This document shows, one piece after another, positions 3,042 through 64,000 of a stretch of 64,000 bases of DNA. The DNA lies in IMG/VR virus record IMGVR_UViG_2617270876_000003, positions 1-64,000 of that record; one strand, written 5' to 3'. Numbering within the stretch: the stretch's first letter is position 1; the number at the start of each line of letters is the position of its first letter. A program made the translations under genes and the position numbers. Under the pieces are notes generated by a model, which worked only from the letters and a program-made list of their open reading frames with translations, had not been told where the DNA came from and did not search any database. This DNA comes from a virus (Duplodnaviria; Caudoviricetes).

Positions 3042-3086
3042 AATACTGATACCCGTTTATTTTTATTTAATAAAACTTCCATTTCA

Positions 3087-6000
3087 TCATTCCTTTGAAG
3101 GTTCTTTGGTTTTGTATTTGGTATAGCGAGTAATCCAATAATCAGTTTGATCTGTTGGCTTAAAACCTCCAGTGCCGTCAGGGACTTGCCTAGGCTTCTT
3201 CATAAACTCTGTAATTTCAATCATGTCGCCTTTATCAATCTTCAGAGATTTATCCTTAGTGTTAAATGTTTTCTTGTCCATTTTGAACATTTGTTCTTTA
3301 CCACTTTTGAGATTATATAGCTTTAGTTTTGGACTGTACTTGATGTCTAGATCTGTTACAACACACCAACCAGAATCAATGTTTGGATATGTGATGTCGG
3401 CATAGCCCATCAATTCTTTACGCAGCATAACTTCTTCGTTAGGTAGCAAAGGTTCAATTGGATTTGATCGAATTTCTTGTTCGATATTTTTTAATTCTTC
3501 AATTCGTTTAATTTTTGTCTTCTCAACATAAGTCTTTTTGTATTGACTTTTCCCATTAGAAAATTCTTCGTAAACTTTTAAGAGCGTTCCGTTATTACCA
3601 AACTTCGAAAAGAAATCGAGACGTATTAAGATGTCGAGTTGCCTTGTATTAACCGATGTGTCTTGAGTTATATTGACCAACAAATCAACAAAACTCTCAT
3701 ATGTATTTTTGCTTAATTCAAGTAGTTCTTCGGCAATTTTGGTATTCAGATACTTGATTGACTCAAGTCCCTTATAAATCGTGTTGTCTTGTTCGTTGTA
3801 AGAATATGATGCCGTAGACTTGCCAAATCGGATAGATGAGATTTCAATGCCTCTCGTTTTTGTATAATTAATAATTGCTCCGGTTTTATCGATATCATCT
3901 TTGTTGATGTTGAGCATAACAGTTAAGAAGGCTAGTGGGTAGTAATATCTTAGATATCCATTACCGTACCCGATATGTGAGTATGGGTTGGAGTGGTTAT
4001 CGGAAAATCCGTATCGTTGGGCATCATCAATTACCTGAAGGAATGGCTCAAGCACTGATAATGCAGATTCTTCGGTTTCGTTATATTCATTAATCATTTT
4101 ATTTACAAACCGTTTTCTAATCTCGGGTAGAAACTTTTCAGTACCTTCCTTTTTCGATAATCCACGACGAACCGAATCGCTCTCAGCCATAGAGAAATCG
4201 CAGAACTCTACGAGAAAATTCATGATTTGTTCTTGGTAGACTAGATAGCCTAACGTATTCTTTAAGAATTCACTGAGCGCCTTGTGTCCGTGATCTTTAA
4301 AAATACCATTTGCCAAAGCTTGTCTATAAGAGTCTCCAGATGGACGAATCGCTCCATTGCCGATTGAAAACAGTTCAATATAACTAAAACTAGGATACTG
4401 CTGCTTAATTCTATTAATCGTCTCAGGACTAAGCAAGTCTTTCAGGTATGCTTGAGCAGAAACACTTTCCCATTGAAATATTCCTAAACCAGAGTCTCTA
4501 ATCGAATTCCACACTTTTTCATCATTTACGTCCATATTATCTGGAACTAATCTTTCGATTCCAGCAAGTTTGCAAGTTTCGTTAATGATTTCAATATTAT
4601 CTAGTCCAAGGATATCTAATTTAACATAGTTTAATCCGTCAAGTTCTTTCATGTTAATCTGGCTTACTGGGTATTTACTTTCTTTTGTGAAGCATAGCCC
4701 TACATTATCTTCAAGGTTGACTGGCGAAACAACATATCCAGATGGGTGCGAACCAATACTTACTATTACTCCTTTGACTAATTCAACGTATTTAAATAGT
4801 TCTGGATACATTTCTATGTATTTTGAGTCAATTACATCTTCTTTTTTCTCGTTTTTATACACTGATTTTGCAATTTGGTCTACAGTTGATAAATCCATGT
4901 TTAACGCTCGACCAACTTCTCTTATTGCTCCCTTAAGAGCTACAGTGTTAAAAGTAATAATTTCGCAAAAATAGATACCCGAGATAGTTGCAACATAATC
5001 AATAACTTCTTGCCGCTTAGATGGGGGCCAATCTTGGTCTATGTCAGCGAGCGAAATCCGTTCTGGATTAAGAAAGCGAAAGAAGTTTAATTTATGTTTT
5101 ATGCTGTCCATTTCAGTTATTTTTAAAAGGTAGGCTATAAGACTACCATTAACCGATCCTCTTCCGTATCCTTGGTAAATATCGTTACTATGTGCCCAAT
5201 CGACAACGTTTTTTTGAAGCAACATATAGTCAATTGCTCCAACTTTCTTATATGTATCAAACTCGTCCCTAATTCGCTGGAAATATTGCTGCTTTTTATC
5301 ATTATCAAACTTATGCAATCCTCTTTCAATTACGCCAATATTTATCTTTTCTTTAAATACTTTTTCTGAATCGTCATGCAGTTTAGGATACTTGGCTGTT
5401 TTGTCTAACTCAAATGGTTCAATCATATCAGCCATAACATTTGTATTATGTATTGCTTCAAGATAGGCACTTCTTGGTATGGCATTTTGTTCTTCAAACA
5501 TTTTGACTAGTTCGGGATGAGTCTTAAAAGTTAAATCAAAAGCATCTTCGTCTCCATATGTTGCCCCTTTAGCTTTCATAAGAATTGTTCTTGCTTGTGA
5601 ATGAGCCTGATTGAGCGCATGAGTATCGGTAGCTGCTATTAATGGAATACCAGTTGTTTTAGATAAATCGTATAAATGCTGATTAAAAATTTTTTGCTCT
5701 GGATGGGTGTGATATTGGATCTCGAAAAACATCCTGTGTTTATTCTTTACAAAGAAATCCATCAATTTGTTTAGCATTTGTTTGTTATCGTTTTTTATTG
5801 ATCTCCATAAAGGCGAAGCAAGACAAGCCGAAGTCATGATAATGTTGTCAGATGTATTGAATAGATCGTCAAATGACAGGCGAGGATTATAATACCTATG
5901 ACCATCGTCTTTGTTATTAGAGAGTGACGTAAGTCTGTTAAGTTCCTGCACACCATCCCAATTCCTACCGATCAACATGTAGTGGTAATTGTCGCGAATC

Positions 6001-6257
6001 AAACCTTTTTCTTTATCTATGTATTCTGTAAGATAAACTTCGTTGGCGTGAATATATTTCATATTCTTTTTCTCAAGAGTCTGTTTCTTTTTTACCCAGT
6101 TAAATATATTGCCATGCTCAGAAAAACATATAGTACTCATTTGCGCTTGCTCTGCCGCTTCTATGTATTGTTCAAACTTAGTTACCGAATCAACGCTCAT
6201 CGATGTACTTGGATTACTCAGATCAGAATGTAAATGATAAATAACGTAATTATCTAT
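3087..6257 (-). CDS. dnaE: DNA polymerase III alpha subunit (YorL-like); probable ATA start at 6257
   Basis: PHP domain (HLHSD, SEHG, TDTH), GRGS, RFLNPERISLADIDQD, GSHPSG, KLDILGL, YQEQIM. Confidence 0.95.
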   Translation of the reverse strand: MDNYVIYHLHSDLSNPSTSMSVDSVTKFEQYIEAAEQAQMSTICFSEHGNIFNWVKKKQTLEKKNMKYIHANEVYLTEYIDKEKGLIRDNYHYMLIGRNWDGVQELNRLTSLSNNKDDGHRYYNPRLSFDDLFNTSDNIIMTSACLASPLWRSIKNDNKQMLNKLMDFFVKNKHRMFFEIQYHTHPEQKIFNQHLYDLSKTTGIPLIAATDTHALNQAHSQARTILMKAKGATYGDEDAFDLTFKTHPELVKMFEEQNAIPRSAYLEAIHNTNVMADMIEPFELDKTAKYPKLHDDSEKVFKEKINIGVIERGLHKFDNDKKQQYFQRIRDEFDTYKKVGAIDYMLLQKNVVDWAHSNDIYQGYGRGSVNGSLIAYLLKITEMDSIKHKLNFFRFLNPERISLADIDQDWPPSKRQEVIDYVATISGIYFCEIITFNTVALKGAIREVGRALNMDLSTVDQIAKSVYKNEKKEDVIDSKYIEMYPELFKYVELVKGVIVSIGSHPSGYVVSPVNLEDNVGLCFTKESKYPVSQINMKELDGLNYVKLDILGLDNIEIINETCKLAGIERLVPDNMDVNDEKVWNSIRDSGLGIFQWESVSAQAYLKDLLSPETINRIKQQYPSFSYIELFSIGNGAIRPSGDSYRQALANGIFKDHGHKALSEFLKNTLGYLVYQEQIMNFLVEFCDFSMAESDSVRRGLSKKEGTEKFLPEIRKRFVNKMINEYNETEESALSVLEPFLQVIDDAQRYGFSDNHSNPYSHIGYGNGYLRYYYPLAFLTVMLNINKDDIDKTGAIINYTKTRGIEISSIRFGKSTASYSYNEQDNTIYKGLESIKYLNTKIAEELLELSKNTYESFVDLLVNITQDTSVNTRQLDILIRLDFFSKFGNNGTLLKVYEEFSNGKSQYKKTYVEKTKIKRIEELKNIEQEIRSNPIEPLLPNEEVMLRKELMGYADITYPNIDSGWCVVTDLDIKYSPKLKLYNLKSGKEQMFKMDKKTFNTKDKSLKIDKGDMIEITEFMKKPRQVPDGTGGFKPTDQTDYWITRYTKYKTKEPSKE

Positions 6258-6299
6258 TTGTATTATCTCCTTCCTCAAAAACTAAGTAAAATATTGAAT

Positions 6300-8918: not shown

Positions 8919-9317
8919 TTATGCACATCCCCATGTTTAATATAAAATGGTTCTACAGCTTTCATTGCTGTTTCTTTATCACATTTATTCTCTTCCATAT
9001 AAAAGCAAACGTCTCCCCAGAAACTATTTTCTTCTTCAGATTCATCGCAACACTTACAATGACACATAATAAGTTCTCCTCCTTTTGATAAAATCTGGAT
9101 TTTATACACTTATTTATCCCATGTATAGCAACACCCAGCAACCCAAATTATCCAAAATCCCAACCAAAATACTGTCTTACTCCATGCAACAATAGCATCA
9201 TATTTATTTGTTTTACTCTCGTTCATTAGGTAGACCCCTTTTTGTCTCAATATCGAGTTATATTTTTTAAAATATTCGAATACATTAAATCATCACTGTC
9301 AAAGGGAGCTGGTTGGT

Positions 9318-10110: not shown

Positions 10111-10544
10111 CTCATTAATTTATTATCGTTGTTTAATATGAAATCAAAGTTTTATCTTCTTTTTGTTTGAACGTGAGTATAATACTCATCTGTAATACAA
10201 AAGCCCATACTAATTGAGTCCAACGTTGCTTTTATGGTTTCTCCACACTCATTACAAAAAAACTTTTTATCGGCTTGATCCGTTAGAATTCTTTTATTTT
10301 TATCTATAAATCCAATTTGAGTATGTATTTTATTTTTCTTATGAATGGGACAATAAAAGTCTAACTTAGTTTTAATTTTGGGATGTTCTTCGAGTTCCAT
10401 CATCAACAGCGTATCAACAATATCTTTCTCTAGATGCTGAGGAAGGACTTTCTTTATATATGGAACACCAAAAATCCTAACCTTTGCTTTGGCAACATTC
10501 TTGATTTCATCATCTATATCCCATTTAAGTTGATAATTAAAATT

Positions 10545-11564: not shown

Positions 11565-12114
11565 GTGAGAATAAACTCAATGAAATTCAGTTTTTATTTA
11601 AATTTATTTTTTAGTGTGATTATTATATCTTTCACTTCTCGGCGACAGGTATAATTTATTAGAAGTACATTAAGCAAAATCGAGACGATAGCAGACCACA
11701 AGAACTTTGGTTCGTTTGGATTAAAAATGAAAATAATTAAATTTATTATTCCACTAAATAAAAATGATAAGCATATTACCGCAGAAAAATGATTTAAGTT
11801 CAATGAATTCCCTCCAGAGTAATTTTTAATATCCATGATGAAAGTCACATTTCACGAGATTTGATTATTCCCTTTAATTCACTAAGCAGATTTTTGTATT
11901 CTTCCTCTGATGCTTTCTGAAGATTATATCTTCCTTCCAAGCAAAAATTATACTTATCCTCGTAGACGAAAAATGGAGACTTGGCAAAGAGTGTCAACAG
12001 AATATCAATTTCTAAATCAGTTAGTTCTATAAGATGGACTTTTTTTGCCCCACTAATTTTCACAACATCTACTCCTTTCTTCATTCCCCATAAAAGCAGC
12101 CTTTTATATTGAAA

Positions 12115-12639: not shown

Positions 12640-13233
12640 ACCTTTTCATTTGTTTATAAAATGCATCGTTTATCACCTTTATTTCTCTCTTATTGTTATA
12701 ATTCTTCCTTCTTGTCTAATTACGGTGTATTTTGTTGCATCTATTACATAGTTGGGATCTTTGAGAATAATTTTATATTCTTTTGTGTAACTATTATCTT
12801 CATATACTGTGAAACGAATTGCGGTTGAGCAAATCACTAACAATAAAAAACACAGAATTGAAACTGAGCCCTTCTTATTAACTAACGAACCAATAAGAAA
12901 CACTAAACACACAATAAAACCGATAATTGCTACTGATCCAATAAATGCTATAGGGCCATTCTTTACAACAGTATCTGTAAAAAGTATTTCCATTTTAATC
13001 CACCTTTCAAATTACTCATTGATAATATTTATTTTTTCTTAATTCTTCAACACTGCGAATCGTTGCCAAACAACCAGCCGAAGCAAAGCAAGCCCATGCT
13101 ATTGTTCGTGGTGATTGATTAAATACCGATATAACAAAGAAAATTAAACACCATAAGAAGATTGCCATTGAGAAAATTACTTTCATCTATGTATGTAGTA
13201 TCCTTTCATCATGATATGTTAGTTCTATCAAAT

Positions 13234-13872: not shown

Positions 13873-13908
13873 ATTATTTTCTCCTTATAAAAGATAGAAT
13901 TTATCATA

Positions 13909-16287: not shown

Positions 16288-18688
16288 ACATTTCCTCCCT
16301 GTTTGGATTTCAAACGACTCTCAATAATTCTGACGTTTTCTTCTTCTTTAAGTCGCATCCATTCAGTATAATCTGGATTCTCATCAATACTTCCTCCATC
16401 TGGACCAACAAGAAAAGTAATACCAGGAAATTTAACTTTTTGTAGTTTGCTGTTTGGAATCGGTTCTTTTGTAATACGATCTATGTATTTGTATGGTGAT
16501 CTACTTCTTAATTTTCCATCTTTGGTGTACAGTGCTGAATTCATTTCGTTTTATTCTCCCTATATGTATTTTAATAAAACAGATATTTTATTGATTTAAA
16601 ATTTGCCAACGACCATCAATTTCTTTTTGTGAAAAATCTCGATCACTGTGTTGTATATCCATAGGGAACTCGTTGAACTCTGATAAGATGGCCCATCCCT
16701 CCTCCTTGGCTACTTTGTATGCAGTCCAGAAATCAACATAAGGTAAGTCAATCTCCCAATTGTCTTCTAGTAAATAATTCATGTTGCAATCTAGAATTGT
16801 ATCATTTGATTCATTTTCGCCTTGATAAATATAAAGTCCCCAATACTTCTTAATAATTCTTTCTTTAAGGTTGTAAGAATATGCTGTCTGCCCGTCAGTC
16901 ATGGTTTTTACCAATTCCACAATGTTCACTTTAAATTTTCCTCTCTGATTTTTATTAGTAAATTAGGTCTTTTTGCGTTATCCAATAATTAATAATCATA
17001 CTTACCACAATAATCATATTCATCCTTGTCCATCTCTTCGGTCAATTTACGGTTTTCTTCAACGAACCCCTCGTATATTTCCTTGCTCAAGCCCCTATTT
17101 TGGGTTGTAATAGCACATGGACAAGCCCTTTCCCAACATACATGATAGTATCCACAACCATAACTGGATTCAATTTTGTTAAATTCATCTTGACTAATCA
17201 TTTGTTCCCACTCCTATTCTTCAATTTTTTGATAAAGCTTGTCTTTCATTTAGATTTCAACACAATAGTCTTCACCAATGTAAACAATGTCATTTAAAAC
17301 ATGCCATTTAATAGTGTGAGGATTTAATACGTTTCCATAGTTCTTATATAGATAATCAAAGATTAAAGTTTCATTATCGGGATCATTTGGACGATTGATA
17401 GTTTCTTCGATTTCAAACAATAAACCGATTTCGGTTTCATCGAATAATTCAAAAGTAACTACATATTTCATCTTTAATCCTCCTTCCCATCATCTTTCAA
17501 ATATCCCTGCAAGTATTCAATATCCTTCAAAATATTCTTACCTTGTGTGTCCATGATTTGTTGAGCGAGTTCGAATGTGATCAATTTTTGATGTGCCATT
17601 TCAGATGCATTATTCATGAGTTGTGCATAATCATAAATGTTTTTAGCAAATCCAGTTAGATATCTTATTTGAAGCTTAGAAGGTTGAAGCATTTCATCTA
17701 CTTTTCGCTGCTGTGTAAAAGAGTCGTTAATTGCTTTACTCCAATCAGAAACAGTGTCTTTATTTTTCTTACTCAATATTTTCTCTCCTGTTCTTAATGA
17801 AATTGAATTTTTATGTGATTTATTACTTCTTCCATAAACCAGAACAAATCGGAAGCACACAAACATTGCAGTATGGCTTATCTTCAACCATATATTTTAC
17901 TGAACGTTTCTCACCACAATATGTGCAAGTAAGCTTTTTGTCATACCACTTATGGATTGGGTCAAACATTTTCATCGACTTCTTAACTCCCTTCTTAAAC
18001 CACAATATTATAGTATCTTCGTTCATAGGCTAACTTCCGATATTGAGGAACTTCATATGTATCAACTTCATTTCTTTCCAAATCAATAATCGTATATGTA
18101 TTTGTATCAACTGTGAATTTTAGATTGCCATATTGGATTTCTCTGTATGGATAAGTCCTCAACACCTTGCCCAAGAATACTGCTCGATTTATTTTATACT
18201 CAATCTCTGAAAATGAGTTGCACTTATGTGTACTATATGAACAAATTTGCATATATTTATCAATAACTGCCTTATTAATTTTCATAAGTTCCCTCCATAT
18301 GATTGAATTGTTCGATTTCATATTTGTCTTCCATTTCTTTATCATATTTTCCTTGTTTATAAGCTATATGCATATGAGCAAGTCGTACATCATTGAATGC
18401 CTTCGACCAGAACAACCAAACAATTAGCTTATCAATCAGTCGTTTCACTATTTTAATCGTCCTCCTGTTATAACTACCGATTTACCAGTTCTGTTCATTT
18501 TGAATGGTTTACTTGTTACTTCCTGGTATTCAACGAGTTCTTCATATGTATCTTCCGTTGCTTTAAATTCTTTGCCTTGCCATATGTATTTTTCACCGAT
18601 AGTAAAATTAGTTGATCGTGGTTTTTCGTTTACCCAACAGATTGATAAGATTGTTTTTGCTGCTTCACTTAATTTCATATGTATTTCT

Positions 18689-20728: not shown

Positions 20729-21193
20729 TTAGTTTTTTCCTGTGCTTCCGATTCCACCTCTTGAAACTTCATCAAGTTCATCCACTGTAATCAATTCAAC
20801 ATCTGGCATTACCTCTTGGATACGGAACTGACAAATACGATCATTCTTCTTAATGGTTGTGTCTCGCATTGCTAACGCAGGGAAATGCCACTGATCTAGA
20901 TTTCCACTGAAAGAATTATCAATTACTCCAAAATGATTGGTCTGAATGATTCCAAAATTTTTATATGTGCTACTGCGTGGAACTGGATTTGCTTCATAAC
21001 CTTCAGGTAGTTTCATTCCCACCCCAAGAGGAATAAGAAAATACTCTCCCTTTCTCAAATCAACATCAATTGCAGAGCGAAGATCAATCCAATCACCCTT
21101 AGAAATTTTAGTTAGTGGTTCAATATTAGAAAAATATTTAACCTTAATTTGGAGTGGCTTTTTGTAAAATGGTTGTTTCATTTGGTCTGTCAT
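20729..21193 (-). CDS. dut: Trimeric dUTPase
   Basis: [28 protein letters not shown]. Confidence 0.93.
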
Positions 21194-25036: not shown

Positions 25037-25447
25037 TTACTCGTTTCTTGCTATTGCTGCATTCGCCCAAAACACACTTTGTTCAAGATTGGTCATCGCC
25101 AATGATTTCTCTCTGCTGCTTGGGGCCAATTCGTCAATTAAATATGCGAATTCTTTTGCCTTTTCTCTGATTTGCTGATATTTTTCCGATTGTCCCACTT
25201 TTGGAGGATGATAGGAGAAATTATTTTCGATGGCAATATTAAACTTTTTCTTTTCAAAAAAAGCAATATTGTCAACAGTATAAACCAACGAATATGTATA
25301 ATCATTGTGTAAAATCTCAAATCCACCATAATCAGGTACAAAATCCGTTTCGCCAATAGACTCAAATGTTTTGTAGTCAATACACTTAATCAATAAATCC
25401 ACTCCTTTATTAAAGTGTTGATGAAAGACTTGTTTTATAGATTCCAT
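25037..25447 (-). CDS. Protein with a C-terminal Acb2/Tad1-like helical hairpin (candidate nucleotide-signal sponge)
   Basis: NNFSYHPP...IREKAKEFA.LI..APSSREKSLAMTNLEQSVFWANAAIAR; recalled family resemblance. Confidence 0.65.
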   Translation of the reverse strand: MESIKQVFHQHFNKGVDLLIKCIDYKTFESIGETDFVPDYGGFEILHNDYTYSLVYTVDNIAFFEKKKFNIAIENNFSYHPPKVGQSEKYQQIREKAKEFAYLIDELAPSSREKSLAMTNLEQSVFWANAAIARNE

Positions 25448-32886: not shown

Positions 32887-33004
32887 TATAAACCTCCTAT
32901 TATTTTATCTTTATAAAACAGTTCTTTCATGAGGAATTTACCGTCAAAAAACCCTTTATTCATGCGGTTTTTAGACATAGCCTTTGCAAAATATGATGTT
33001 TTAC

Positions 33005-39646: not shown

Positions 39647-40465
39647 TTAATATAATTTATGTCGTTCTTCTTGCAGTTTGTATTTGTGCAACTCGAAGAA
39701 ATCAACACAATATTTGATTAAAGTTTCTCTTTCTTTATTTAAGCGTATAAACTCTTTTGGATCAAAAGAATGTCTTGCATACCTTTTTTCAATTTCAACT
39801 AATTTATCTCTTTCTTTTGATATTCTATTATCGATTTTTTCAAATAAACCCTTGCTAAATGATAATCGAGACAAATCTTGAACAAAGAAAAAGAGTGACT
39901 TCCACTTTAATTTCCGATTTACGAAATAAAAATCATACACATATTTATATGGGTGTTTCAATACCGCTTCCCATTTATCAATTTTCTCTTCGACTAATTT
40001 TAGTTCTTTTTCTTTATCTTCTCTTTGTCTTTTATTTTCAGCATTAATTTCATCTTCTAATTTTGGCTTATCCCTAATTCCATACCATTGTTTGTAGATA
40101 TTAAACTGGGCAATTTCAATATCACCACAATAAATAGCAAAAATCGATGGGAATGACATTGGCTGTCGAACTTTTACTGTTAGATCATAGGTACATTGCT
40201 TCTGAAAATAAGTGTTCATTAATTCGGCGAGATACTCTTGAAACTTATGCAGTTCTCTCTTAACCGAAGTAAATATTAATGATTTACTACCTTTTAATTC
40301 TTTATCTGCGGTTGTGAACAACAGTACGGGTGTTTTGGTCGCAGCTTCAATAAACCGTCTTTGAGATGTTAACTCTTCAATGGCTTCGTCTATGCTTGAT
40401 TTAAAATTATCAAAACTCAAATTATCATTCCTTTTCATATTTTGATAAAACCTATATTTGATCAA
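39647..40465 (-). CDS. Hypothetical protein
   Basis: Long ORF, no recognised motif. Confidence 0.6.
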   Translation of the reverse strand: MIKYRFYQNMKRNDNLSFDNFKSSIDEAIEELTSQRRFIEAATKTPVLLFTTADKELKGSKSLIFTSVKRELHKFQEYLAELMNTYFQKQCTYDLTVKVRQPMSFPSIFAIYCGDIEIAQFNIYKQWYGIRDKPKLEDEINAENKRQREDKEKELKLVEEKIDKWEAVLKHPYKYVYDFYFVNRKLKWKSLFFFVQDLSRLSFSKGLFEKIDNRISKERDKLVEIEKRYARHSFDPKEFIRLNKERETLIKYCVDFFELHKYKLQEERHKLY

Positions 40466-45484: not shown

Positions 45485-45784
45485 TTTTCATCACCCACTA
45501 ATAGTATATCAAAAGTGTATATACTGGTTTAGCGGTAAGTTATGTATGTTAAACCTCGAAGCAATCATATCCAAGGTTATCGATTAAATGTAATTGTGTA
45601 GCAACAATCTTTCCATTATCGTCCTTTAGATTTATCTGAGACTCGTATTTTAAATCAATGTAAATTCCATGTTCATAGGACAGATTCTCTAAAGCTTCAA
45701 TAAAGTCAACAATTTTATCCTTACTCAATATGATTCCTCCTTCGTTTCATGGGTTGATGAAATACCTCTTTCATGAGGTTTTAT

Positions 45785-45831: not shown

Positions 45832-45857
45832 TAAACATCATAAGATTAATTTTAAAT

Positions 45858-47673: not shown

Positions 47674-47722
47674 TAGATGTCTCCGTTCTTGTTAGTATTT
47701 CTTGATAAAATGAGGGTTTTAC

Positions 47723-48616: not shown

Positions 48617-48831
48617 TTAATCATCTCCTATGTATTTTTATTATTTAAATCAATACCACAAACATGACAGTAATTCAGTTCGATATCGGTATATTCAAAA
48701 CTATCATTACTATAATCCCACGAATTTCCCTCTACTCTTAAATACCATTTCTTATTTTGATAATCAAACCAAATATTTTCATCACAGTTATGTTCCACTC
48801 TTTATCCTCCCTTCAACATGAAACTGAACTT

Positions 48832-50040
48832 TTATTCCAACTCAAATGGACATTTGTAGTCTTCTAATTCTTCATTCTCCCACTTTTCATATTCCGCTTT
48901 AGGCACTTCTCTTGTCACAATGCAACTTTTTGCCAGAACTTTATCTGAATTCTTAATGTAAAAATCTGTGTATGGAATTGTTGCTTCAATTAACACAGCA
49001 TTTCTGCTATTTGAATAACTGGAACTTGAAATTTCTAACTTCTCATTGAAATACAGGTAGTCATCTCTCTTGGGAGTGGCCTTCTGATCTATCTTGTATT
49101 CAAATTCCTTGTCCCAGAAACTAAAATATTTATCTCCCCTTTTTTCAACGAACTTGTAGAATTTCCGATTCGCGATAAACTCCTCTCCGTTGTATCCAAC
49201 TTTATTCTTTGGCGTGTTATCAATTTGCTTTAGAGTCCCATCTTTTTTTATTCTATATGTATAGTCATTAATTGTTACTACTTTAGTTGGTTCCTTGCTT
49301 ATGTATTCGATAATCTCTTCAACATCATTAAATTTAACTTTTTCTGGTTCCTTGAAATAATCATCATTTATTGAAAGATCAGCTATCTTATCAATGATTA
49401 AATCAAGAGAGAATTCTTCACCTTCTTTCAGTTTGATTAATTTATCGTAGTTGATTCCATACATTCCACCCAAATGCTCTTTTAAATGCTCAATTGTCTC
49501 GATCTTCATGCCCATGCACTTTAGTGCAATCCGCAAAAATTCCGGCTTGGAAATTGTGTATCCTTTTTCTTTATATTTATGTACTCTAAGCAAAGAAACG
49601 ACTGGGTATGCAGTGTTTTTGTTGAACTTGAGAATCCGTTGTGAATTATGTTTTAGGAAGTCTTCGTGTAAAACGAACTCCTCTGAGAAAAAGTCGAATG
49701 CACCCATGCATACCGTATAATCAAAACTGTCAAATATCTCTTCCGCATTCTCAAAATATCTGAAATGAATCATTTGTACTTCTTTATCATCGATTCTTAC
49801 AAGGAGCGCTTTTGTGGTCAGAGCATTGATCCAGTCATTCCCATCCTCATATACTTCTTCAATAAATTCATTGAGCAGTTTTTCGCTACGAAAATAAACA
49901 TCAACATCTTTAATTTCTTTATTATTGAATAGACTAGTAATTAATCCCCCAGCTATAAATACCCTATATTCCTTAAATACATTGACTAAATGTTGCCCCA
50001 AGTAATTGTACAGTTTATTCTTTTCAAATTGGAAGTTCAT
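48832..50040 (-). CDS. Pol-beta-superfamily nucleotidyltransferase (CCA/poly(A)-polymerase head-like)
   Basis: IAGG..S, KDVDVYF, FDYTVCM, SLLRV.KY..KGY. Confidence 0.75.
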   Translation of the reverse strand: MNFQFEKNKLYNYLGQHLVNVFKEYRVFIAGGLITSLFNNKEIKDVDVYFRSEKLLNEFIEEVYEDGNDWINALTTKALLVRIDDKEVQMIHFRYFENAEEIFDSFDYTVCMGAFDFFSEEFVLHEDFLKHNSQRILKFNKNTAYPVVSLLRVHKYKEKGYTISKPEFLRIALKCMGMKIETIEHLKEHLGGMYGINYDKLIKLKEGEEFSLDLIIDKIADLSINDDYFKEPEKVKFNDVEEIIEYISKEPTKVVTINDYTYRIKKDGTLKQIDNTPKNKVGYNGEEFIANRKFYKFVEKRGDKYFSFWDKEFEYKIDQKATPKRDDYLYFNEKLEISSSSYSNSRNAVLIEATIPYTDFYIKNSDKVLAKSCIVTREVPKAEYEKWENEELEDYKCPFELE

Positions 50041-51088
50041 TTATCTTCTCCTTTATAATATCATTAATTATTATTTATGTATATATTTATTTTTACTTTA
50101 TTGAATTATAAACTTGAATCCAGCAGCCACAACTACAATTTAAATCATGATCCACTTTCTTCTTGTTTGGTAGTAGCAACCTTGCCGATGGAAAACTATA
50201 TGGTCTGTTAGCATATTGCAATCTTCCTTCTTGATATTCAATCTCATCAAGAATTTCTCTTAATTCTCTTTTGTCTTTCCTTTTTGGCTTCACTTTAATC
50301 TCATCTTTTAACTCAAGTGCTCTCATCTTTAATGTTTTTGTGCTGACTCGATATAACATCTCGCCCCAAACTCCCATACTCAACCTCTACTTTCTTCATA
50401 AAATCGGGCTTTCATGCGCTTTTAGTAATCAAAAAGTCCAGTGTTTATAAGGTTTTCTTGCATTAACAAGCTACGAAACATGTATTGCACCACTTCTTCG
50501 TACTGTGCAACTAATTTTGGAACCAGACAGGGCTTAAAGAAACAATTTCATCAATTTCGCCAGCTAACATTCCATTGACTGATACATAGCTGTCATTCCA
50601 TTCTTCTTTCGAGCAAGTGGAGAGACAAAATACCTTAAAATAATTTCCGTTAAGAGTAAACACCTTGTAAGTTGTGTCAATGATAGTCTTATCCTTGTAC
50701 GGCGTTTGCACATACTTCTGCGCAGCCAGAAGCTCCGCATTAGGGGTGCTGTTCAAATACGAATTAACAGACTGCTGGAGACTTTCGGGGCAATCATTGA
50801 GTTTGATTTCTTCTTTCATAGTTTAATCACTCCTTCGCTATATGCGTATGCCATACTTCATACCTCAAATCGGTCTGGCAATAAATTAAATACTTGCTTA
50901 CGATAAACAGATCTTCTAAATAACTCTTCGGGACAATCCAGGCATTTAATCACAAGATCTTTTTCAATTCCTCCACTCTCTAATTCGTTCCCTGCCGGAA
51001 AATAAGCGGCAATATGTTTATGTGCGCAATCCAACCAATCACCAACTTTCTGATCAAATCAAGCTTTGATGAAGATCTTTAAATCACT

Positions 51089-51745: not shown

Positions 51746-53512
51746 ATTGTGATTCTCCTATACTCTGTGAAAGTAAACTTTCATCTTATTTTCTCACTTT
51801 AATTCTTATAGTTATCTCTAATCGTTCATTGGATTCTGGGTCATAAATTGGCATATTCTCCTTAATCCAATCCTTAACACGTTCGATTGGGTCTGATCCA
51901 TCATAAGTTATGATTGTTATCTGTTCACCTACTAATCGTTCATCCTCTTCAAACATCTACTTGCCTCCAATTCAACTATTCCAGCGATTTAAGTTTCGAG
52001 CTTTCCTTGATCCAATCGAATAATTTTCTAGTATCATTGGATGTACATTCATCCAAAAAATCATCTATGTCAATGTTAATCATTCTATCGTCTAGATACG
52101 TTTGTACTTCTTCCCTACTGACGTAAAAATGAAACTCACCAAATTGATTATATGTAGTTAGTTGAATCTTAGTTGTCTTATTGCTCATGATTGAAATCTC
52201 TCCAGTCCCGATGTTGGTTTATTTTACCTCTTAACATCATAATACCTTATCTTGTTTAATACAGCATGAGGTAAAATAATCCTGTTGGAGAAAGATTTCG
52301 CTCAGTCTGTTTCGTCATCTATATCATTACCATCACTATCAGTATGTATTACTTCTTTTAGTTTTCCGCCTTCCCATATTTGCAGTATATGAGATGAGTC
52401 TTCACTGCCTATATACTCTTCTGGATTTACATCATGTATCGTGATACCTTTAGCAATTTGTTGATCGTCTCCAGCATATAAAATCTGATAATACTCTATT
52501 TCCTCAAATATTTTCACATAGGTTTTATTCATTCTTGTTCCTCCATTTCTACGTAAAAGAAAGATTTTATCCAATATATATGATTTCTTCTTTAATGATT
52601 ACAGACTCAAATTCATTTATAAAAACTCTGTTCAGCACTATATCTTTTTGAGAGACATTTAATCTGGTAGTTTTACTTATTCCTTCCGCCGCTTTCTTCA
52701 GACTCATATAGTCACGGTATCCATCATTAATGATTTTCCCATTCTGCTTTAAGATACATTCATAATTTACTCTAACGAATTTTCCTTTTCTTTGCTGGAC
52801 TACTCTTTCTATCCCAATGACCAATTCCTCATTTCTTCATGGCTTCAAAATGTTTTATAGTATAATGCCGTGCTGGTCTTCCAATGTGTTTGATATAGCC
52901 CTTAGTAAACAAATCACTTTTATCAAGCGCTGATAATACACGATTATTGATTTTTAACGGATGATGATCTCCATGCTTATCATACATTCCTGCACGATTA
53001 GCACATTCGTGAATTTCATCCAAATCTCCATACCAAACTGAATTTCGACCATTTTCAATTAAAATGTCATACATATGCTCTGCAATAGTTTTCTTCATAT
53101 TCACTCCATGTCTTCATCGCAGAAGAAAATTTCACGACCTCTCAAGCCATTCAAGTGTTTGTGATTGATCCATGTAAAAAGAATTTTCAGTAAGATTGTA
53201 TTTTACAAACACATCGGCTCCAGCAGTACCCTGATTAAACCCATTGAAATCAGCATCAACAAACATTCTTGCTATAATATAGCCGCCAATTATCTTATCT
53301 TCATAATTCTTTATGTAATCACTTTTAATTGGTTCATATACATCACCAAACGCTAAATCGAGAATATAGCCAAGTTCTTTTAAGTTTCTTTTTCCTTTAT
53401 AATAAACTCTTTCACCATATTCATTCTCTTGAAATTTATCAGAGAAAAAATAATTCCTCAAGTTGCTTTTTCTAGCCTCAAACTCTGACGATTTCAACCA
53501 ATCATCTCCATT

Positions 53513-53776: not shown

Positions 53777-54983
53777 TTCTTAATGAAAGGAAAATTTCAT
53801 AAGTTTTTAATTCAAACATGGTTATGATTCATAAATATTAAATATATTCGTAATGACCATGAGAAACCACATCTGGACACTCACCATTTTTCTCAACAAT
53901 TACTTGGACACCAATATCTCTGTATTTATGAGCGTCTTTAATATAGTACTCTTCATTAACATTGTACCAATTCCAAGATTCACTTTTTGTAATAATAATT
54001 TTCTTCACTTTTAATTTCCTCCCTTAATAATACTAAATTTTTTCTACTTTATACGATAGCCATCTTTCCATCTCTTGGTTGTATGCTTGTTCAACATCGT
54101 CTTCATCCAATTCCTCGTCTAGGTTTTTAAGTTCTTCTATTACTTCTTTGTACGTTCTCAAGCCATATAAGCCAGCGCATTTTTCATACTCTTCTACGGC
54201 ACGTTCATAGGCATAATCCATTGCTTCGTCTTGTGAATCAAAGTCTTCTGTCGAACCATACTTTGCTCCACCAAAACCGCCGCCAAGACCGTAGTATATT
54301 TTGTAATTTACCATTATATGCAACTCCCTAAATATTTTTAATGAAAGAAAATTTTATTTGATCTTAACGAATAACTCCGATAACTCTTCATCTGTAATAA
54401 TATAATCTGCAAAGTCTCGATTTGCTCCAAGCGCATGTTTCCCGTCATTTGTTTTATAACAATAAAAATAAATTGCCTCATTATATTTGTGTTTATATAG
54501 CACACTATCTCATCCTTTCTTCATGAAATGTATGATTTATCAACTTTCCTCCTTCCACTTAGTTTTAAAACCCAAGTACTTAGTCATAGAAATTTTTGCT
54601 CCTCTTAACGATCTAAAGTTGTCGTGATAAGCGATGCTCATTCCTGTTGCAGATAAGTAATTCTTACCAGGATAAAACTGTGTAGAATACAGTTGAGTAT
54701 TAGGATTGTATATTATTGAAGCCGACTCTCCGTCTTTAGGATTAATCAGTTTCCATGTCTTTTTCATCTTCTACCCCATGATTTGATGATAAAGTATTTG
54801 TTTTATTCGAAGTCAAATCCATATCTTTCTAGCAGTTTTGTAACAACATTGATATCAGACTTATTTATCCATTCAATGAATTCCTCTACTGTTTCATAGT
54901 CTTTTTTAGGAACATTGGTATTCCATCCATGTTCTTTTTCCCAAGCAGTACCGTCGGCTAAACTCATAAATCATTCTCCTTCT

Positions 54984-55241: not shown

Positions 55242-55633
55242 TCATCTCTATATGAAATGCCACTTTTATCATGATTTATGTATCAAGAAACCCTTATTCT
55301 ATGCGGTTATTTTGATTATTATTTTCTATTTCATTCTGTTATAGACCTTACGTGCATCTGTATGTAAAATCGTTGGACTAATGATAATATTCTTGCCGAT
55401 CAGGTCTGACCAGTCTGCATCCCAAGTTCTTCGATCATTTAATTCAACAAAATAATTCTCTGTTAATTTCTCCGTTTCAGGCCAAGGCATTCTCCATTTT
55501 AAAATAATTAGATCGCTTGTTTTGGGATGTCTGATAACACCAGTAGTCACAAATTTTAAAATGTTGTAGCTTGGCAATCCCAATTTAATTGCATCAATTT
55601 CTTTATCATCTAATGTAGGCAATACCATCATAA

Positions 55634-55930: not shown

Positions 55931-56973
55931 TAATCATTTTTAATAAGTCATTATGTTCTTTAATCCACTTCAAGCTTTTAGAGGTTGTGTCTTCAGGATA
56001 TTGGGCAAACCACAGTAGATCATCGTAATTGTTTCGATGCAATTTAAATCCACTGCCAAATTCTCCTCCAAGACGATACTGGTTTCCCTGTTTGTCTACT
56101 ACAAACTGTTTGAAACTATATTCGTCATAAGAACATTTGAGTGGTTCTATGTAATTTAATATTTCCTCATATAATTGTTCTCTGTCCATCCTTGTACCCC
56201 ATTTCATGAAATCATATTTTATTCAACTTTGAAAATTCGCCTGGAATAAATCCATCAACCAAACCTTTTGCGTCTTTGAATGTTAGTGGTACAATATTAT
56301 TGATTGAACACAACGTTAAATAATGTTCGTATGCAGCCTCATCAAATTTTGCTGATGGTTGGCTTTCTGCAAATTCGATAATACTATCGAGCGAAGCATT
56401 TTCAACCAACCATTCGCCGTTATGTTCAATATAATATTTTTCTCCCAAACTCCAGTGATTAATTCGGTATCCATTTACTGTTGTAATATAGGTATGAGTC
56501 ATAGTCTAAACTCCTTTTTTCATTTCTTAATGAATTTCACATTTCTTTATGAAAGGTAATATAATCAAAGTCGTGTTCTACATAGAAACCAATGTGTAGC
56601 TCTTCGAGATGCTTTTCGAATCTAGAACTCAGTTCATCGCTACCATTAGAAATAATTAAATATCCCAGGTTAATAAACGATTCAAAACTAAATGACAACC
56701 ATTCATCAACATTCATTTAACCTCGCCTACTTTTACAAGTTCCCATTGTTGATTCATGAAGGTATCAGTGAGGCAAACCCAACCTTCATATCCCAAAGAG
56801 ATATTAATTCTACCTTCTGTATCACAATAAATGAAGTTTCCAGCGCTATCTTTTGTGACCAACCTTCCATCTTTTGATTTCGCAATTATTCTATTATTCA
56901 TCGAACCAATCATTTCAATCGTGTTCATTTGATTATTCTCATCTCCTCATAAAAGATTGTTTTTATCTGGATT

Positions 56974-57537: not shown

Positions 57538-58239
57538 CCATTCTCTTCAAATTTATGAATTGCTGCATCTATACCAGATCCAAATCCCACTCCATAAGCT
57601 ATTCTCAGAATTTCTTTTTCATCTTCTGTAAGTTGTCTATCCATTTTCAAAGTACATACCATTTCAACTTCATCATAATTATGTTCTTTGTTCATTGTTT
57701 ACCATCTCCGTGAATTCCAGTTACATTGAATCTTTCCTCTTCACAGAACTCAATTGCTTCCTCTCTCGTCGAAAATGAATTTACCCAAAACTCTGTTCCT
57801 TCAACTTGTACTGACCATTGAAACACAGCAGCGTCATCGCCATATATGATAAAAACATCAGGTTTTTCCTGATATACTCTATCAAGTGCCAAGTTATCTT
57901 TTTCTTTTCTTGAAATATCTTCTCTGTCATAAACTTCATTTATGTATTGCTTAAGTGACATACACTTTTCCTCCTTTAGCATGTGACTATACAGATAATA
58001 TTTCCACACTATGATTTTGACAAACTTCTTGTAATTTACAAGCCCAAGTAAAGTGAAACTGGTTAACTACTTCCTTTTCTTTTTCACTTAAAACATTACC
58101 CCATACTTCTTCTTCTATATAATCAGGACATTCAAATAAATAGTATGTAACTACTTCACCAAATGGGTTATAGCTTGCTGGCCCAATAATCACTTTATCC
58201 ATTTATTTCTCCTTTCGTTTTTCTCATAAAAGGCTAATT

Positions 58240-58713
58240 TCATTTACTATTGATAATATAATTCTTCGTGACTTTCCCCGTAGATAAAATCACTTTATTA
58301 TTGCCTTGTGAGATGGACTTAGTAAGGTTAACAACAAAATGCCTTTTGATGTATATATGTGAGTAAAAGTTGGCCATATCGTTTTGAGGTTTTTTATTGT
58401 AAATCACTTTATCATTAACTACAATAACCAACGGATCGGAACTATTCACGTACTTGCCATATATGTAAAATTCCCTTGTTTTATCTGAGTACATGCTAGT
58501 ATCTATAGATATATTGTTCTGGTCATCCAATTCAAATTCCTCGTCATATGCCCCTCCTTCTCCTTGCTTGATAATGCCCAATCCAACGCTATAAAAAAAT
58601 GTATTTGGTTCCCCAAATTTCTTTTCAATTTTATATCTGAGATTGTTTGGCACTTGAAAAAAGATCAATACCGTTACCAATGCAATTATGCAAATGAAGA
58701 TCTTCTTTTTCAC
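58240..58713 (-). CDS. Exported/membrane-anchored hypothetical protein bounded by junction palindromes
   Basis: Signal-like N-terminus; motif copies at 58226 and 58733. Confidence 0.7.
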   Translation of the reverse strand: MKKKIFICIIALVTVLIFFQVPNNLRYKIEKKFGEPNTFFYSVGLGIIKQGEGGAYDEEFELDDQNNISIDTSMYSDKTREFYIYGKYVNSSDPLVIVVNDKVIYNKKPQNDMANFYSHIYIKRHFVVNLTKSISQGNNKVILSTGKVTKNYIINSK

Positions 58714-59412
58714 TTCAGCATTCCTTCTCTCAGTAAAAGAATTGTTTCATTAATATACCAACGATTTTTTATATTTTGAAAACTTCGGTGTATCCCTTTT
58801 CGGAAAACTGCTTATATATATTGAGTTTGTCTCGTTCTGAGTCATAAATGAAGAACGATCTTATTTTATTGAAGCATTTGATAATTTCAGCATTGACCGA
58901 CTTCTGAATAAAGCAATTTGATGAAGGGTCTCTTTCTATGTAGTCGATAAACGTGTTTGATGATTTATCGAATAAGTAATAACCTTCTCCATAATTCCCT
59001 ACAAATAATGCATAAGCATCTTTAAACTCATAAAGATGGCTCGCCATTTCATCCACTCCTTATGAAAGTATTATTTCGTACTGATTTCCCATAACTCGTT
59101 TTCGAGTGTATAGCAGCTCTTTGCCCAATTACAGAAATCCTCAATACCGCATATACCTAAGACATGTCCTCCTCTAGGGTTTTCAATGTATTTAATGACA
59201 TCTTTTGATACGTCAATTGACTGAATCATTCGCACACTTTTATTGTCCGTGTAACGCTCACCTTCTGCTAATTCATATGGCTCCATCATACATCGCTCCT
59301 TATTAATATGTATTCTTCAATACCGTAGCACTTTCCTTGCTATAACTTAATAATACACCAAATTAATAGTATATTCAAGTTATTTATTTTTACTTTATAA
59401 ACTCATTCTGTC

Positions 59413-61390: not shown

Positions 61391-61409
61391 GTACAAAAAC
61401 CCCTTGTTA

Positions 61410-61453: not shown

Positions 61454-62078
61454 TTATGCAAGAGGAATTTTTTAACTTGGATCGAATATGTAATTGTTTG
61501 ATTAGCAATATCTTATATTTTTCTTAAAACGATACTTTTATCTGGTTTTCTGTTTACAATTTAATGTTTTTATGAGTTTTTCATATCATTAATAATGAAT
61601 TTTACGAACATATTCGTTGATTGCATCGTTTAAGCCCTGATGCAACATACAATATTGTTCTACGGTTAAAATTTGTTGAATTTCCTTTTCACTGACATTT
61701 TCGCGCCAACGATAATCGGAGTCATAAGCTGGTGACTTAGAAATTTTCTCAATATGTTCGTCCTGGTACTTTAACATTTCCTCCATAGTGAGGAACGCAG
61801 CTTCAAACTCATGCTTATCTTCTTCGTAAAGATTATAGATAGTGACATAAAGTAAAATGTAATTTTTAGATTCATAGTCTTCTGACATTGCTAAATCTCC
61901 TCCTTTATAAAAGCCCAATTTTATCAACTCTCTGATTGCCTGTTTAATGCTTCAGCAATTAATTCTGCATCATCTTTTTTTAGTCCTTCGGCCAAGTATC
62001 TGCTTTCTGTGGTATCGAAAATCGAATATTCATCTTTTAACAATCTTTTGTCTACCTCATATCGATAATACACGTTCA

Positions 62079-62708: not shown

Positions 62709-62866
62709 TTCTTTCTATCTGGTAATTGATTCGCTAATTACATATATCTCTTTATTTTGTTCGTCGTATCCATATACTAAAGTTACATCTTCAAGTTTGT
62801 TGACAACGATCTTTAGAGTCTTTCCATCTAAATCTTCAAAATTAAAGGTATCAATATGGTTAAAAA

Positions 62867-63313
62867 TCAGTCCCACCATCCTTGAGATTTTTCAGAAATA
62901 ATTTCAAAAGCTCGTTTCATATCTTCTGCTTCTTGCTGTTCTGCTCTATCCATTCCTTCGCTCCAGATTTTATAGTTTTCATTGTCTGTATTAAAATTCA
63001 GTTTATCATTATTAAAACTGATAAACTCATCAAATTTAAAATCGACTTTTTTAACACGAGAACCATCTATTATGTTATACAGAAGTTCTTTTGCCTCCAT
63101 TATCTCTTCTGCTACTTCAGGTGCATTAGCCGAATATGTACGTTCACTTCGGAAAAATTTTTCCATGAATGAAAGCTTTTTATGTAAAATCCGATAAAGA
63201 TATGCTTGGTCAAAGTCGCGGTCATTCCATATTACTGGAAGCCATTTAATAAGATTAGAGAGTCCTTCTGTTAAATTATAATATTTACCTTTAATCAATT
63301 TGATTATTTTCAT
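62867..63313 (-). CDS. Conserved phage hypothetical protein
   Basis: WLPVIWNDRDFD ... GWWD. Confidence 0.7.
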   Translation of the reverse strand: MKIIKLIKGKYYNLTEGLSNLIKWLPVIWNDRDFDQAYLYRILHKKLSFMEKFFRSERTYSANAPEVAEEIMEAKELLYNIIDGSRVKKVDFKFDEFISFNNDKLNFNTDNENYKIWSEGMDRAEQQEAEDMKRAFEIISEKSQGWWD

Positions 63314-64000
63314 TTATATTATCTCTCCCTGGTTATTCTATTACTTCAATTCTTACCTTCTTGCCGTGAAGTCTGCGACAAATTTCTGATATTTCTAAAT
63401 CATCAATCATATAATCACACTCATAGCCATTATTTCCCCAAACTTTACCTTCATATTTAGTATTTAAATATGGTAAAATTGCTTCCTCTTCTAAACGTTG
63501 ATAAGACGAATATATAAAATCATCAAATTTCCAATACTCTTCTTCAAAGCGCACTGTAATACCATTGGGAAGTAAACCACTAAGATTAACATCTACAAAC
63601 TCTACGATACCACTAATATCATCATCGACCCAAACTTCCGCCTTTCTAGTAATTATTACAAGCCCATATTTTTCTTTTAATTTCGTTAGTGTCTTTTCAA
63701 ATTCAATTTTCACAATTGCGTCTTTATCCAGGCATTCTACTTCGTGATCAGCACAATCAAATGGTGTATCAAATTCTTTATCGCAATTTTCACATTTATA
63801 GACTTCTCTAGGCATTAATAATTTCCCCTCTCATATTTTCTTAAAATGTTCATTTAATCAGCTTTTATCTTTAGCATCCACTTACATGATTCATAGTTAA
63901 GTCCTGCGACGAATGAATCTCGGATTCTTGTCATAATGAGTCTCAAGTCGTCATCCTCTGAAAATAGGTTTCCATCAATTGGACTAAACAACTTATGAGA

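Follow-up and report, generated by a model that had tools for sequence, protein, structure and literature searches.

A 16–18-bp dyad element with slot-specific spacers as a candidate site of gene cassette exchange in SPbeta-like phages

The window analysed here is a 64,000-nucleotide stretch of viral DNA (positions 1 to 64,000 of IMG/VR record IMGVR_UViG_2617270876_000003) in which one short palindrome recurs between genes. The element, called the linker below, is a 16–18-bp dyad, A-TRAAA-N6-TTTYA-T. With a probability of roughly one half, we take linkers to be sites at which SPbeta-like phages exchange gene cassettes, the 6-bp spacer giving each slot its own address, spacer identity being needed for exchange, and a YopP-like tyrosine recombinase being the leading candidate for the enzyme. 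The origin of phage genome mosaicism is a long-standing open question, and in the family of SPbeta and phi3T a 16-bp element appears to set dozens of ordered, individually addressed slots.

The strict pattern TRAAA-N6-TTTYA occurs 31 times in the window, against a mean of 3.05 in 100 dinucleotide shuffles (maximum 8). When the spacer was varied from N0 to N13, the 31 copies at N6 were opposed by at most 6 at each other spacing. A preliminary description of the window had counted about 40 palindromes, at least 25 of them strict, and had reckoned with a few chance hits. A position weight matrix (PWM) threshold of at least 9 indeed returned 40 window sites, all 25 strict copies listed there fit the strict pattern, and the shuffled sequences place the observed number far above that chance level. 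Six strict copies (9089, 11839, 21165, 25422, 29244, and 61853) were absent from the earlier list. Among its 17 near-matches, eight (12656, 13887, 17232, 27792, 31158, 32551, 54789, and 59062) reached a PWM score of at least 9, whereas the other nine scored 1.5–8.7. Two conserved blocks had been described as empty; this holds for 40.6–45.5 kb, where no site reached a score of 7, but the dfr-nrdD block contains the strict copy at 21165. In the logo of the 31 strict window sites, information content is high only at positions 0–5 and 12–17, and the outer positions are weak and slightly symmetric. Position 0 is A in 28 of 31 sites, position 17 is T or C in 30 of 31, and T never stands at the last spacer position. 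The strongly conserved arms are 6 bp long and dyad-symmetric, with half-site centres 11 bp apart.

Related phages were compared over six early regions of about 41 kb each, from SPbeta, Goe11, phi3T, SPR, BUCT083, and SPbetaL1. These Bacillus subtilis phages of the SPbeta family are close kin, and counts made among them are not independent events. Internal ends of blastn homology blocks fell within 15 bp of a motif centre in 67 of 317 cases, compared with 3.9 for random positions, and block ends piled up 7–9 bp from the motif centre, i.e. at the edges of the core. Among junctions of at least 20 nt, a breakpoint was present in 55 of 66 that carry the motif versus 69 of 192 that lack it (Fisher p = 1.3e-11), an excess with the same direction in three gap-size strata. 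Counted per site, a breakpoint lay within 12 bp of 47 of 97 linkers, of 9 of 82 landmarks formed by a ribosome-binding site (RBS) and start codon, and of none of 21 cores of SPBRE, the element bound by the master repressor of these phages. The earlier proposal that the motif cuts the accessory genome into cassettes is therefore sustained for the SPbeta family only, where breakpoints concentrate at the motif edges and genome comparison supports the element as a boundary of exchangeable gene cassettes.

The spacers behave like positional addresses. The 97 strict sites of the six phages comprise 36 distinct spacers, 25 of which occur in at least two phages (11, 8, 7, 5, 1, and 4 spacers were found in one, two, three, four, five, and six phages, respectively). 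The order of shared linkers is the same throughout, with 0 of 522 pairs discordant, and a single linker can have up to 5 unrelated groups of left flanks and 4 of right flanks. Same-spacer pairs between phages (n = 129) had homologous flanks on both sides in 31 cases, on the left only in 27, on the right only in 16, and on neither side in 55. Flank homology was called at a local score of 35 in 78 nt (null 95th percentile 13, maximum 18), and about one same-spacer pair is expected by chance, a value estimated from the 4^6 possible spacers and not simulated. One slot holds four unrelated contents of 262–2,238 bp among the six phages. Wherever a junction carried the motif in both phages, the spacer was identical in 27 of 32 pairs and differed by 1, 2, 2, 4, and 4 bases in the others. 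One flank was about 45/45 identical in these 32 pairs and the other was at chance level; the motif went with the flank next to the RBS in 20 pairs and with the flank next to the stop codon in 12. On the non-homologous side, identity reached only 0–2 bp past the core in 46 of 57 and 48 of 56 cases, leaving a shared tract of about 16–20 bp.

Isolated exact matches of at least 16 bp outside the homology blocks pointed in the same direction. Those bearing the motif were syntenic in 54 cases and non-syntenic in none, compared with 89 syntenic and 227 non-syntenic matches without the motif, which were mostly dispersed repeats. In 28 pairs whose flanks were homologous on both sides and diverged, mismatch rates were 1.4–2.9% in the arms, 4.2% in the spacer, and 7.8–10.2% in the flanks. 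Within a genome, the spacers were all different both in the prophage island that contains the window (73/73 strict sites) and in SPbeta (36/36); together with the enrichment at N6 only, this agrees with the earlier observation that the spacer is fixed in length and variable in sequence. Because identical 16-mers stand at the same positions and in the same order beside unrelated neighbours, with homology ending 0–2 bp from the core, we deduced that in the SPbeta family linkers are the points of cassette exchange between related phages. The identity of the spacer in 27 of 32 pairs suggests, moreover, that both partners carried the same 16-mer, since exchange within the arms only would give about half. 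Such sharing of the whole core would fit either a tyrosine recombinase or an identity-dependent exchange over short homology. In SPbetaL1 (L018 ~17754-18917), a segment whose content varies between phages includes Gad1, an annotated anti-defence gene located one gene away from a shared linker; anti-defence genes may be among the traded cassettes.

The window equals G000:C1:4232714-4296713 of a 5.87-Mb, Paenibacillus-type genome with 50% GC and forms the left part of an island of about 196 kb (~4,232,500-4,429,000) with 33% GC. The island consists of a minus-strand early arm of about 135 kb, made up mostly of small genes, and a plus-strand late arm of about 60 kb. Strict copies number 120 in the genome, 73 of them in the island. 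Elsewhere in the host genome, N6 is no commoner than N5 or N7, and a host regulon was ruled out on this ground. A symmetrised PWM gave 108 island sites at a score of at least 9, versus 18.4 in Markov simulations. Although only 16% of the island is intergenic, 91 of the 108 sites lie between genes or overlap a gene end by at most 8 nt.

All long open reading frames (ORFs) of the window are encoded by the minus strand. Along the direction of transcription, a stop codon is followed by A-TRAAA-N6-TTTYA-T, a purine-rich RBS, and a start codon, in line with the earlier remark that the copies sit between genes, often supply the stop, and lie just before the RBS. The TRA of the element is the stop codon of the upstream gene in 20 of 87 site-junction pairs of the island, and the distance from the element end to the next start is mostly 14–38 nt. 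Occupied junctions amounted to 79 of 240 minus-minus and 8 of 54 plus-plus junctions in the island and to 35 of 121 co-directional junctions in the window; these counts are approximate because the heuristic gene caller missed some ORFs. The median site-to-site distance in the early arm was 918 bp. In long gaps, some copies stay by the stop codon of the upstream gene, with a sigmaA-like promoter or a terminator coming next, and other copies come after the promoter or terminator, before the RBS. Since copies fall on either side of promoters and terminators, the element is a separate intergenic module.

The same element was found in related phages. SPbeta (AF020713) has 36 copies at N6 and at most 8 at other spacings, mostly in the early cluster and just upstream of an RBS; none of these sites is annotated in that GenBank record. 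Goe11 has 16 at N6 in 41 kb (at most 5 at other spacings), and 7 were counted in 39 kb of Alicyclobacillus phage KKP_3916 (at most 2). Among eleven loci gathered via one window protein (L019–L029), the element was enriched in L019, L020, L023, L025, L026, and L028 and was not enriched in L021, L022, L024, L027, and L029. Whole records contained 48, 28, and 14 copies, compared with 7, 0, and 1 for a reversed-pattern control, and two records that are not SPbeta-like contained only 2 and 1. The consensus is kept across phages of three host genera, and the element is a lineage trait of SPbeta-like phages in the broad sense. Two complete 16-mers are common to L020 and L026 although their flanks are unrelated, and one of the two also occurs in KKP_3916. 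The linker-free loci L022 and L029, IMG/VR contigs of 156 and 162 kb with 39% GC that are not SPbeta-like, are enriched in another palindrome, TATA-N5-TATA (13 versus 1.3 expected in L022 and 7 versus 0.7 in L029).

A search of the prophage for tyrosine recombinases found two such genes, a YopP-like and an MrpR-like one, 70 kb and 23 kb past the window, and the earlier statement that SPbeta-like phages encode proteins of the tyrosine-recombinase fold proved correct for both. The YopP-like gene (G000 4367213-4368280, ~70 kb past the window end) encodes a protein with a match to PF00589 (Phage_integrase) at 4e-15 and a SAM-like domain, and this protein aligns with XerD. In six YopP orthologues the Tyr, Arg-I, and box-II His are invariant; these residues and Arg-II are those to which we presumptively assign the catalytic roles. 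YopP was present in 5 of 5 motif-rich records. It is reported as a core gene of SPbeta-like phages, and no assigned function for it was found in the SPbeta literature examined. From its sequence, this YopP-like, Xer-type tyrosine recombinase is the leading candidate for the enzyme acting at linkers. The Arg-II position is occupied by Arg in the island, phi3T, and BUCT083; in the proteins of SPbeta, Goe11, and SPbetaL1 with Lys at this position (L002:28691-29767, L005:34564-35640, and L018:33372-34454, respectively), the next conserved His is shifted by one residue.

The island MrpR-like protein matches the dedicated MrpR Pfam domains. MrpR is described as a protein with the tyrosine-recombinase fold and no recombinase activity that acts as master repressor and binds SPBRE, and the ten ChAP-seq peaks named in that report are all SPBRE promoters (PMC10516654). 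Its phi3T counterpart SroF is reported to bind a 24–26 bp box as a monomer (bioRxiv 2025.11.27.690993). For comparison, we derived the SPBRE core: 9 of 10 named promoters share a 10-nt core, a 12-nt A/C-rich leader, and a fused -10 box. The SPBRE/MrpR operator was ruled out as the identity of the linker, whose consensus is unrelated and whose symmetry differs from a monomer-read box of 24–26 bp. YonR was ruled out as the reader of the linker, since the complete Goe11 record and G062 carry the motif and lack YonR. A YoqL-like HNH nuclease is an unlikely reader, as the complete KKP_3916 record and G062 yielded no match to it. A YonO promoter was also ruled out: one YonO start site is reported, upstream of yonK (PMC5467207), and most linkers are in the early arm.

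Several observations weigh against cassette exchange by YopP at linkers and limit its reach. The six phages are close kin, and the 55 pairs with neither flank homologous stem from about ten linkers. No strict motif is near 177 of 238 block ends, and breakpoints are also present at the 69 of 192 motif-free junctions mentioned above. Laboratory hybrids of phi3T and SPbeta are reported to have recombined in long homologous regions, at 15 of 16 sites. The two linkers common to L020 and L026 stand in opposite order, and the uniqueness of spacers within a genome is by itself not significant (2.5 collisions expected in the island). With regard to the candidate enzyme, the Arg-II position of YopP is Lys in SPbeta, Goe11, and SPbetaL1, and MrpR and YonF co-occur with the motif as YopP does, so that the co-occurrence of YopP only marks the lineage. 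Conserved arms of 6 bp are shorter than the usual arms of tyrosine-recombinase sites and are typical of sites for helix-turn-helix (HTH) dimers.

The window itself adds to these points, as no close relative of its phage was found by megablast against phages or among 60 related genomes. The nearest relatives share one gene at 58–78% protein identity, with DNA homology confined to that gene; the best relative reached via the window protein is 78% identical in that one protein. Around the gene shared with L019, homology ends on the 3' side 15–22 bp from the linker in L019 and 86–93 bp in the window, and on the 5' side it ends 381–757 bp from a linker. Synteny with L019 was uninformative, and the island shares no 16-mer with its nearest relatives. 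As there is no close relative, an exchange role of the window copies rests on their equivalence to SPbeta-family linkers in consensus, spacing, placement, and phage type with its gene content; by this analogy the window copies probably behave in the same way.

As for mechanism, dyad arms around a fixed 6-bp spacer call for a dimeric protein. Such a protein would read both arms, and exchange would require identity across the spacer, as it does for the tyrosine recombinases Cre, Flp, Xer, and lambda Int. Recombination would then be confined to allelic linkers of two genomes present in the same cell; gene order would be preserved, and no deletions would arise between copies of a single genome. 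The process would amount to a naturally occurring form of recombinase-mediated cassette exchange with heterospecific sites. A recombinase mechanism at linkers is plausible from the sequences compared here. In its most specific form, which we put forward tentatively and as possible rather than probable, YopP would pair linkers of co-resident phages and strand exchange would proceed only with matching 6-bp spacers, the spacer serving as the address of the slot. If so, dozens of slots holding anti-defence and other accessory genes could be swapped between relatives with gene order intact and no self-deletion.

The spacer data also bear on whether linkers could instead be operators for a dimeric phage regulator, working as a stoperator-like roadblock, an insulator, or an activator before the RBS, with mosaic boundaries as a by-product. 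The dyad symmetry, the 11 bp between half-site centres, and the 6-bp arms would suit such a protein, as would the location of sites inside transcription units right before an RBS or beside promoters and terminators. The same phages have already recruited a recombinase-fold protein as a pure DNA binder, and dozens of copies in short intergenic gaps recall stoperators (PMC9283540). A regulator needs no particular spacer, yet the 16-mers persist where both flanks have been replaced (55 of the 129 same-spacer pairs) and the spacer is conserved more than the flanks. A true operator of these phages, SPBRE, draws no breakpoints, in contrast to the linkers (0/21 versus 47/97); the obvious HTH candidate, YonR, is missing from motif carriers, as described above, and the named MrpR peaks are all accounted for by SPBRE promoters (PMC10516654). 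We therefore judge a purely regulatory role to be rather unlikely, and a dimeric binder as such, the alternative offered in the earlier description, is compatible with a recombinase dimer. It is a little less likely still that linkers passively provide short stretches of identity to general or phage-encoded homologous recombination, with no dedicated site-specific enzyme, as proposed for the PeSLs of T4-type phages. Modular shuffling mediated by PeSLs provides a precedent (PMC2839356, PMC4122927), an identity-dependent exchange also predicts the whole-core identity seen in 27 of 32 pairs, and the laboratory recombinants of SPbeta and phi3T are reported to have arisen in homologous regions. The shared tract is, on the other hand, only about 16–20 bp long. 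Passive identity also leaves the dyad arms, the fixed N6, and a consensus kept across three host genera unexplained, and dispersed repeats of greater length, SPBRE for one, do not serve as boundaries (0/21). A length of 16–20 bp is very short for RecA-type exchange.

We consider it highly improbable that the linker works at the mRNA level, whether by enhancing translation from a position just 5' of the Shine-Dalgarno sequence, by marking a processing site, or by folding into a weak hairpin. The element is transcribed and mostly ends 14–38 nt ahead of a start codon, and the mean minimum free energy (MFE) of the 73 strict island sites, -1.49 kcal/mol, is slightly below that of shuffles (-0.64 kcal/mol). 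A stem would consist of only 5–6 A-U pairs, however, and the earlier statement that R and Y do not covary was upheld by the 73 sites: read on the sense strand, the four R/Y combinations occur 20, 20, 21, and 12 times, with 20 of 73 in the A-C mismatch class (Fisher p = 0.34). The lack of covariation and the mean MFE rule out an RNA hairpin. Furthermore, the symmetry is equal in arms transcribed in opposite directions, some copies precede promoters or terminators and not an RBS, and spacer identity across unrelated flanks would go unexplained. Finally, a compositional artefact of AT-rich intergenic DNA, in which a stop codon and an A-rich run are followed by a T-rich run before the RBS, would be in keeping with TRA often being the stop codon (20/87) and with the 33% GC of the island. 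It can practically be dismissed, as enrichment is seen at N6 alone (31 versus at most 6 at 13 other spacings), the counts exceed every dinucleotide shuffle and the Markov nulls, and the reversed-pattern control is far lower in the relatives.

Modular theory predicted linker sequences between interchangeable modules; to our knowledge, clear examples are few, PeSLs being one. Shuffling of modules at conserved intergenic elements is already known, and what is unusual here is the per-slot address. The closest published analogue is the PeSL, likewise a short conserved intergenic element among small accessory genes where indels and replacements begin and end (PMC2839356, PMC4122927), and in the SPbeta family linkers do stand at such boundaries between close relatives. 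PeSLs are, however, described as composites of an early promoter and a terminator stem-loop; homologous recombination takes place between their copies and gives rise to mini-circles. The linker has no promoter or stable hairpin inside, promoters and terminators being only adjacent to some copies; its copies have only the arms in common, each has a private spacer, and exact matches are position-specific (54 syntenic, 0 non-syntenic). As to the PeSL trait of recombination among different copies, shared linkers are strictly syntenic in the six phages, which would speak against it, and one inversion of order was found, L020 versus L026.

Xer/dif and pdif sites resemble the linker in their inverted arms around a 6-bp centre, a spacing matched by the N6-only enrichment in the window, SPbeta, Goe11, and KKP_3916, and in that modules are bounded by sites and an Xer-like tyrosine recombinase is encoded in the linker-bearing genomes. 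Sites of the dif type have 11-bp arms with distinct XerC and XerD halves, whereas linker arms are symmetric and strongly conserved over 6 bp only, with identity stopping 0–2 bp past the core. Modules of the pdif type depend on host XerCD and alternate in site orientation; linker spacers all differ within a genome. Heterospecific lox/FRT exchange likewise combines common arms with differing spacers. In such exchange only sites with the same spacer recombine, so that order and orientation are kept, and the sharing pattern of linkers is as such exchange would leave it. The engineered systems use Cre or Flp, 13-bp arms, and 8-bp spacers and are man-made; linkers would form a natural system with dozens of addresses per genome.

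Integron cassettes are also small, mostly single-gene, co-oriented units parted by imperfect palindromes; the median linker spacing is 918 bp. An attC site measures 57–141 bp, folds as a single strand, and needs the IntI-attI-Pc platform, whereas the linker is a 16–18 bp site that does not fold (mean MFE and covariation as above). No integron platform was found, the only tyrosine-recombinase genes being the YopP-like and MrpR-like ones 70 and 23 kb past the window, in a search that did not extend to attI and Pc. Given the short site, the symmetric arms, and the lack of folding, the earlier assignment to integron-like or pdif-like systems was not maintained. Stoperators of cluster A mycobacteriophages share the dozens of short sites in short intergenic gaps (PMC9283540). 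They are asymmetric and oriented with transcription, and the immunity repressor binds them as well as the main operator. The linker, by contrast, is symmetric, and the master repressor MrpR/SroF reads a separate 24–26 bp box as a monomer. SPBRE likewise recurs between genes of the same phages and is read by a protein of the tyrosine-recombinase fold, but it has another sequence, is fused to promoters, is asymmetric, has about 10 bound sites, and coincides with a breakpoint in 0 of 21 cases. The linker can now be told apart from this easily confused element. SPBRE, integron attC, pdif, stoperators, and PeSLs each have at least one defining feature that the linker lacks.

No prior description of the linker was found in the SPbeta, SPBRE, and YopP literature examined, a scope that does not include supplements; possibly relevant ones are the hybrid junctions in Supplementary Table 1 of bioRxiv 2020.05.06.055103 and the core-gene tables of bioRxiv 2021.11.22.469490. 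The linker extends to phages of Paenibacillus and Alicyclobacillus. Because SPbeta and phi3T belong to a well-studied model family with good genetics, the mechanism is directly testable. It suggests a possible function for the conserved yopP gene and may account for the trade in accessory and anti-defence genes among SPbeta-like phages. If exchange is site-specific, linkers would represent a naturally orthogonal set of recombination sites.

Positions of linkers and of the terminal integrase gene in the window (window coordinates; PWM, score against the position weight matrix; new, absent from the earlier list)
Feature	Position	Strand	Remarks
Linker, strict	3071..3086		PWM 16.9; adjoins Pol III alpha gene stop
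Linker, strict, new	9089..9104		PWM 17.5
Linker, strict	10139..10154		PWM 17.1; 84-residue ORF ends on TRA
Linker, strict	11581..11596		PWM 15.4; then sigmaA-like promoter
Linker, strict, new	11839..11854		PWM 17.5
Linker, strict	12091..12106		PWM 19.0
Linker, 1 arm mismatch	12657..12672		PWM 10.5
Linker, 1 arm mismatch	13888..13903		PWM 9.1
Linker, strict	16575..16590		PWM 16.4
Linker, 1 arm mismatch	17233..17248		PWM 10.2
Linker, strict	17798..17813		PWM 14.6
Strict copy in dfr-nrdD block, at or within 5' end of dUTPase-like ORF	21165..21180		PWM 16.5; role uncertain, no RBS found downstream
Linker, strict, new	25422..25437		PWM 18.3
Linker, strict	27065..27080		PWM 16.8; adjoins stop, no nearby start
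Linker, 1 arm mismatch	27793..27808		PWM 10.2
Linker, strict, new	29244..29259		PWM 17.0
Linker, 1 arm mismatch	31159..31174		PWM 10.9
Linker, strict	31900..31915		PWM 17.8; terminator-like hairpin precedes
Linker, 1 arm mismatch	32552..32567		PWM 9.9
Linker, strict	32914..32929		PWM 18.0
Linker, strict	35511..35526		PWM 16.9; 106-residue ORF ends on TRA
Linker, strict	36101..36116		PWM 16.3
Linker, strict	37019..37034		PWM 17.1
Weak copy, 1 arm mismatch, new	40446..40461		PWM 10.0
Linker, strict, downstream of promoter-like region	45758..45773		PWM 19.2
Linker, strict	47706..47721		PWM 16.3
Linker, strict	48819..48834		PWM 16.9
Linker, strict	50399..50414		PWM 19.1
Linker, strict	51768..51783		PWM 17.3
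Linker, strict	52554..52569		PWM 16.4; 85-residue ORF ends on TRA
Linker, strict	53784..53799		PWM 18.6
Linker, 1 arm mismatch	54790..54805		PWM 9.3
Linker, strict	55253..55268		PWM 18.4
Linker, strict	56950..56965		PWM 15.6
Linker, strict	58227..58242		PWM 18.5
Linker, strict	58734..58749		PWM 16.9
Linker, 1 arm mismatch	59063..59078		PWM 11.6
Linker, strict	61525..61540		PWM 14.5
Strict pattern within coding start, possibly chance match, new	61853..61868		PWM 9.3; after ATG of next ORF
Linker, strict	61908..61923		PWM 17.8
Large serine recombinase (integrase, not candidate reader) at prophage end	203..1831	-	Resolvase, Recombinase, Zn_ribbon_recom; 27% identity to SPbeta YokA/SprA

Judged by its gene content, the island is an SPbeta-like prophage; at about 196 kb it is much bigger than SPbeta (134 kb). 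Its genes include those for the terminal large serine recombinase, Pol III alpha, NrdD, and an ImpB-type polymerase. ORF blastp of the island found homologues of SPbeta structural proteins and of YonN, YonO, YonR, YopP, YopQ, YopR (MrpR), YoqL, YoqV, YorF, YorG, YorJ, YorK, YorL, and YosS. The YonO homologue is a distant YonO-like RNA polymerase (G000:C1:4369097-4371874; 23% identity over 777 residues). The YonR-like HTH_3 gene (G000:C1:4343385-4343930, L031:886-1431) is on the plus strand, opposite to the neighbouring early genes, like a divergent repressor. The YopQ-like protein encoded beside the MrpR-like gene (L004:2469-3794) has a DndB match below the cutoff (E = 1.9e-5, 24.4 versus 29.1 bits).

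A second dispersed repeat, A-rich and about 16 nt long, lies near gene ends and starts in SPbeta (L001–L003) and the six SPbeta-family loci and gives many of the non-syntenic short exact matches between phages. A promoter-like region at 45775-45855 of the window, between a PAPS-reductase-like gene and the linker at 45758, contains a short box twice, and the same box forms an inverted pair at the same place in the IMG/VR relatives L023 and L026. This SPBRE-like box is not enriched in the window (3 matches versus 2.15 expected), and it could be a local operator. At 53500-55650, two adjacent small genes have similar N-terminal coding sequences, each with its own linker (53784 and 55253) and a different spacer. 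The pair looks like a tandem duplication that has kept separate addresses.

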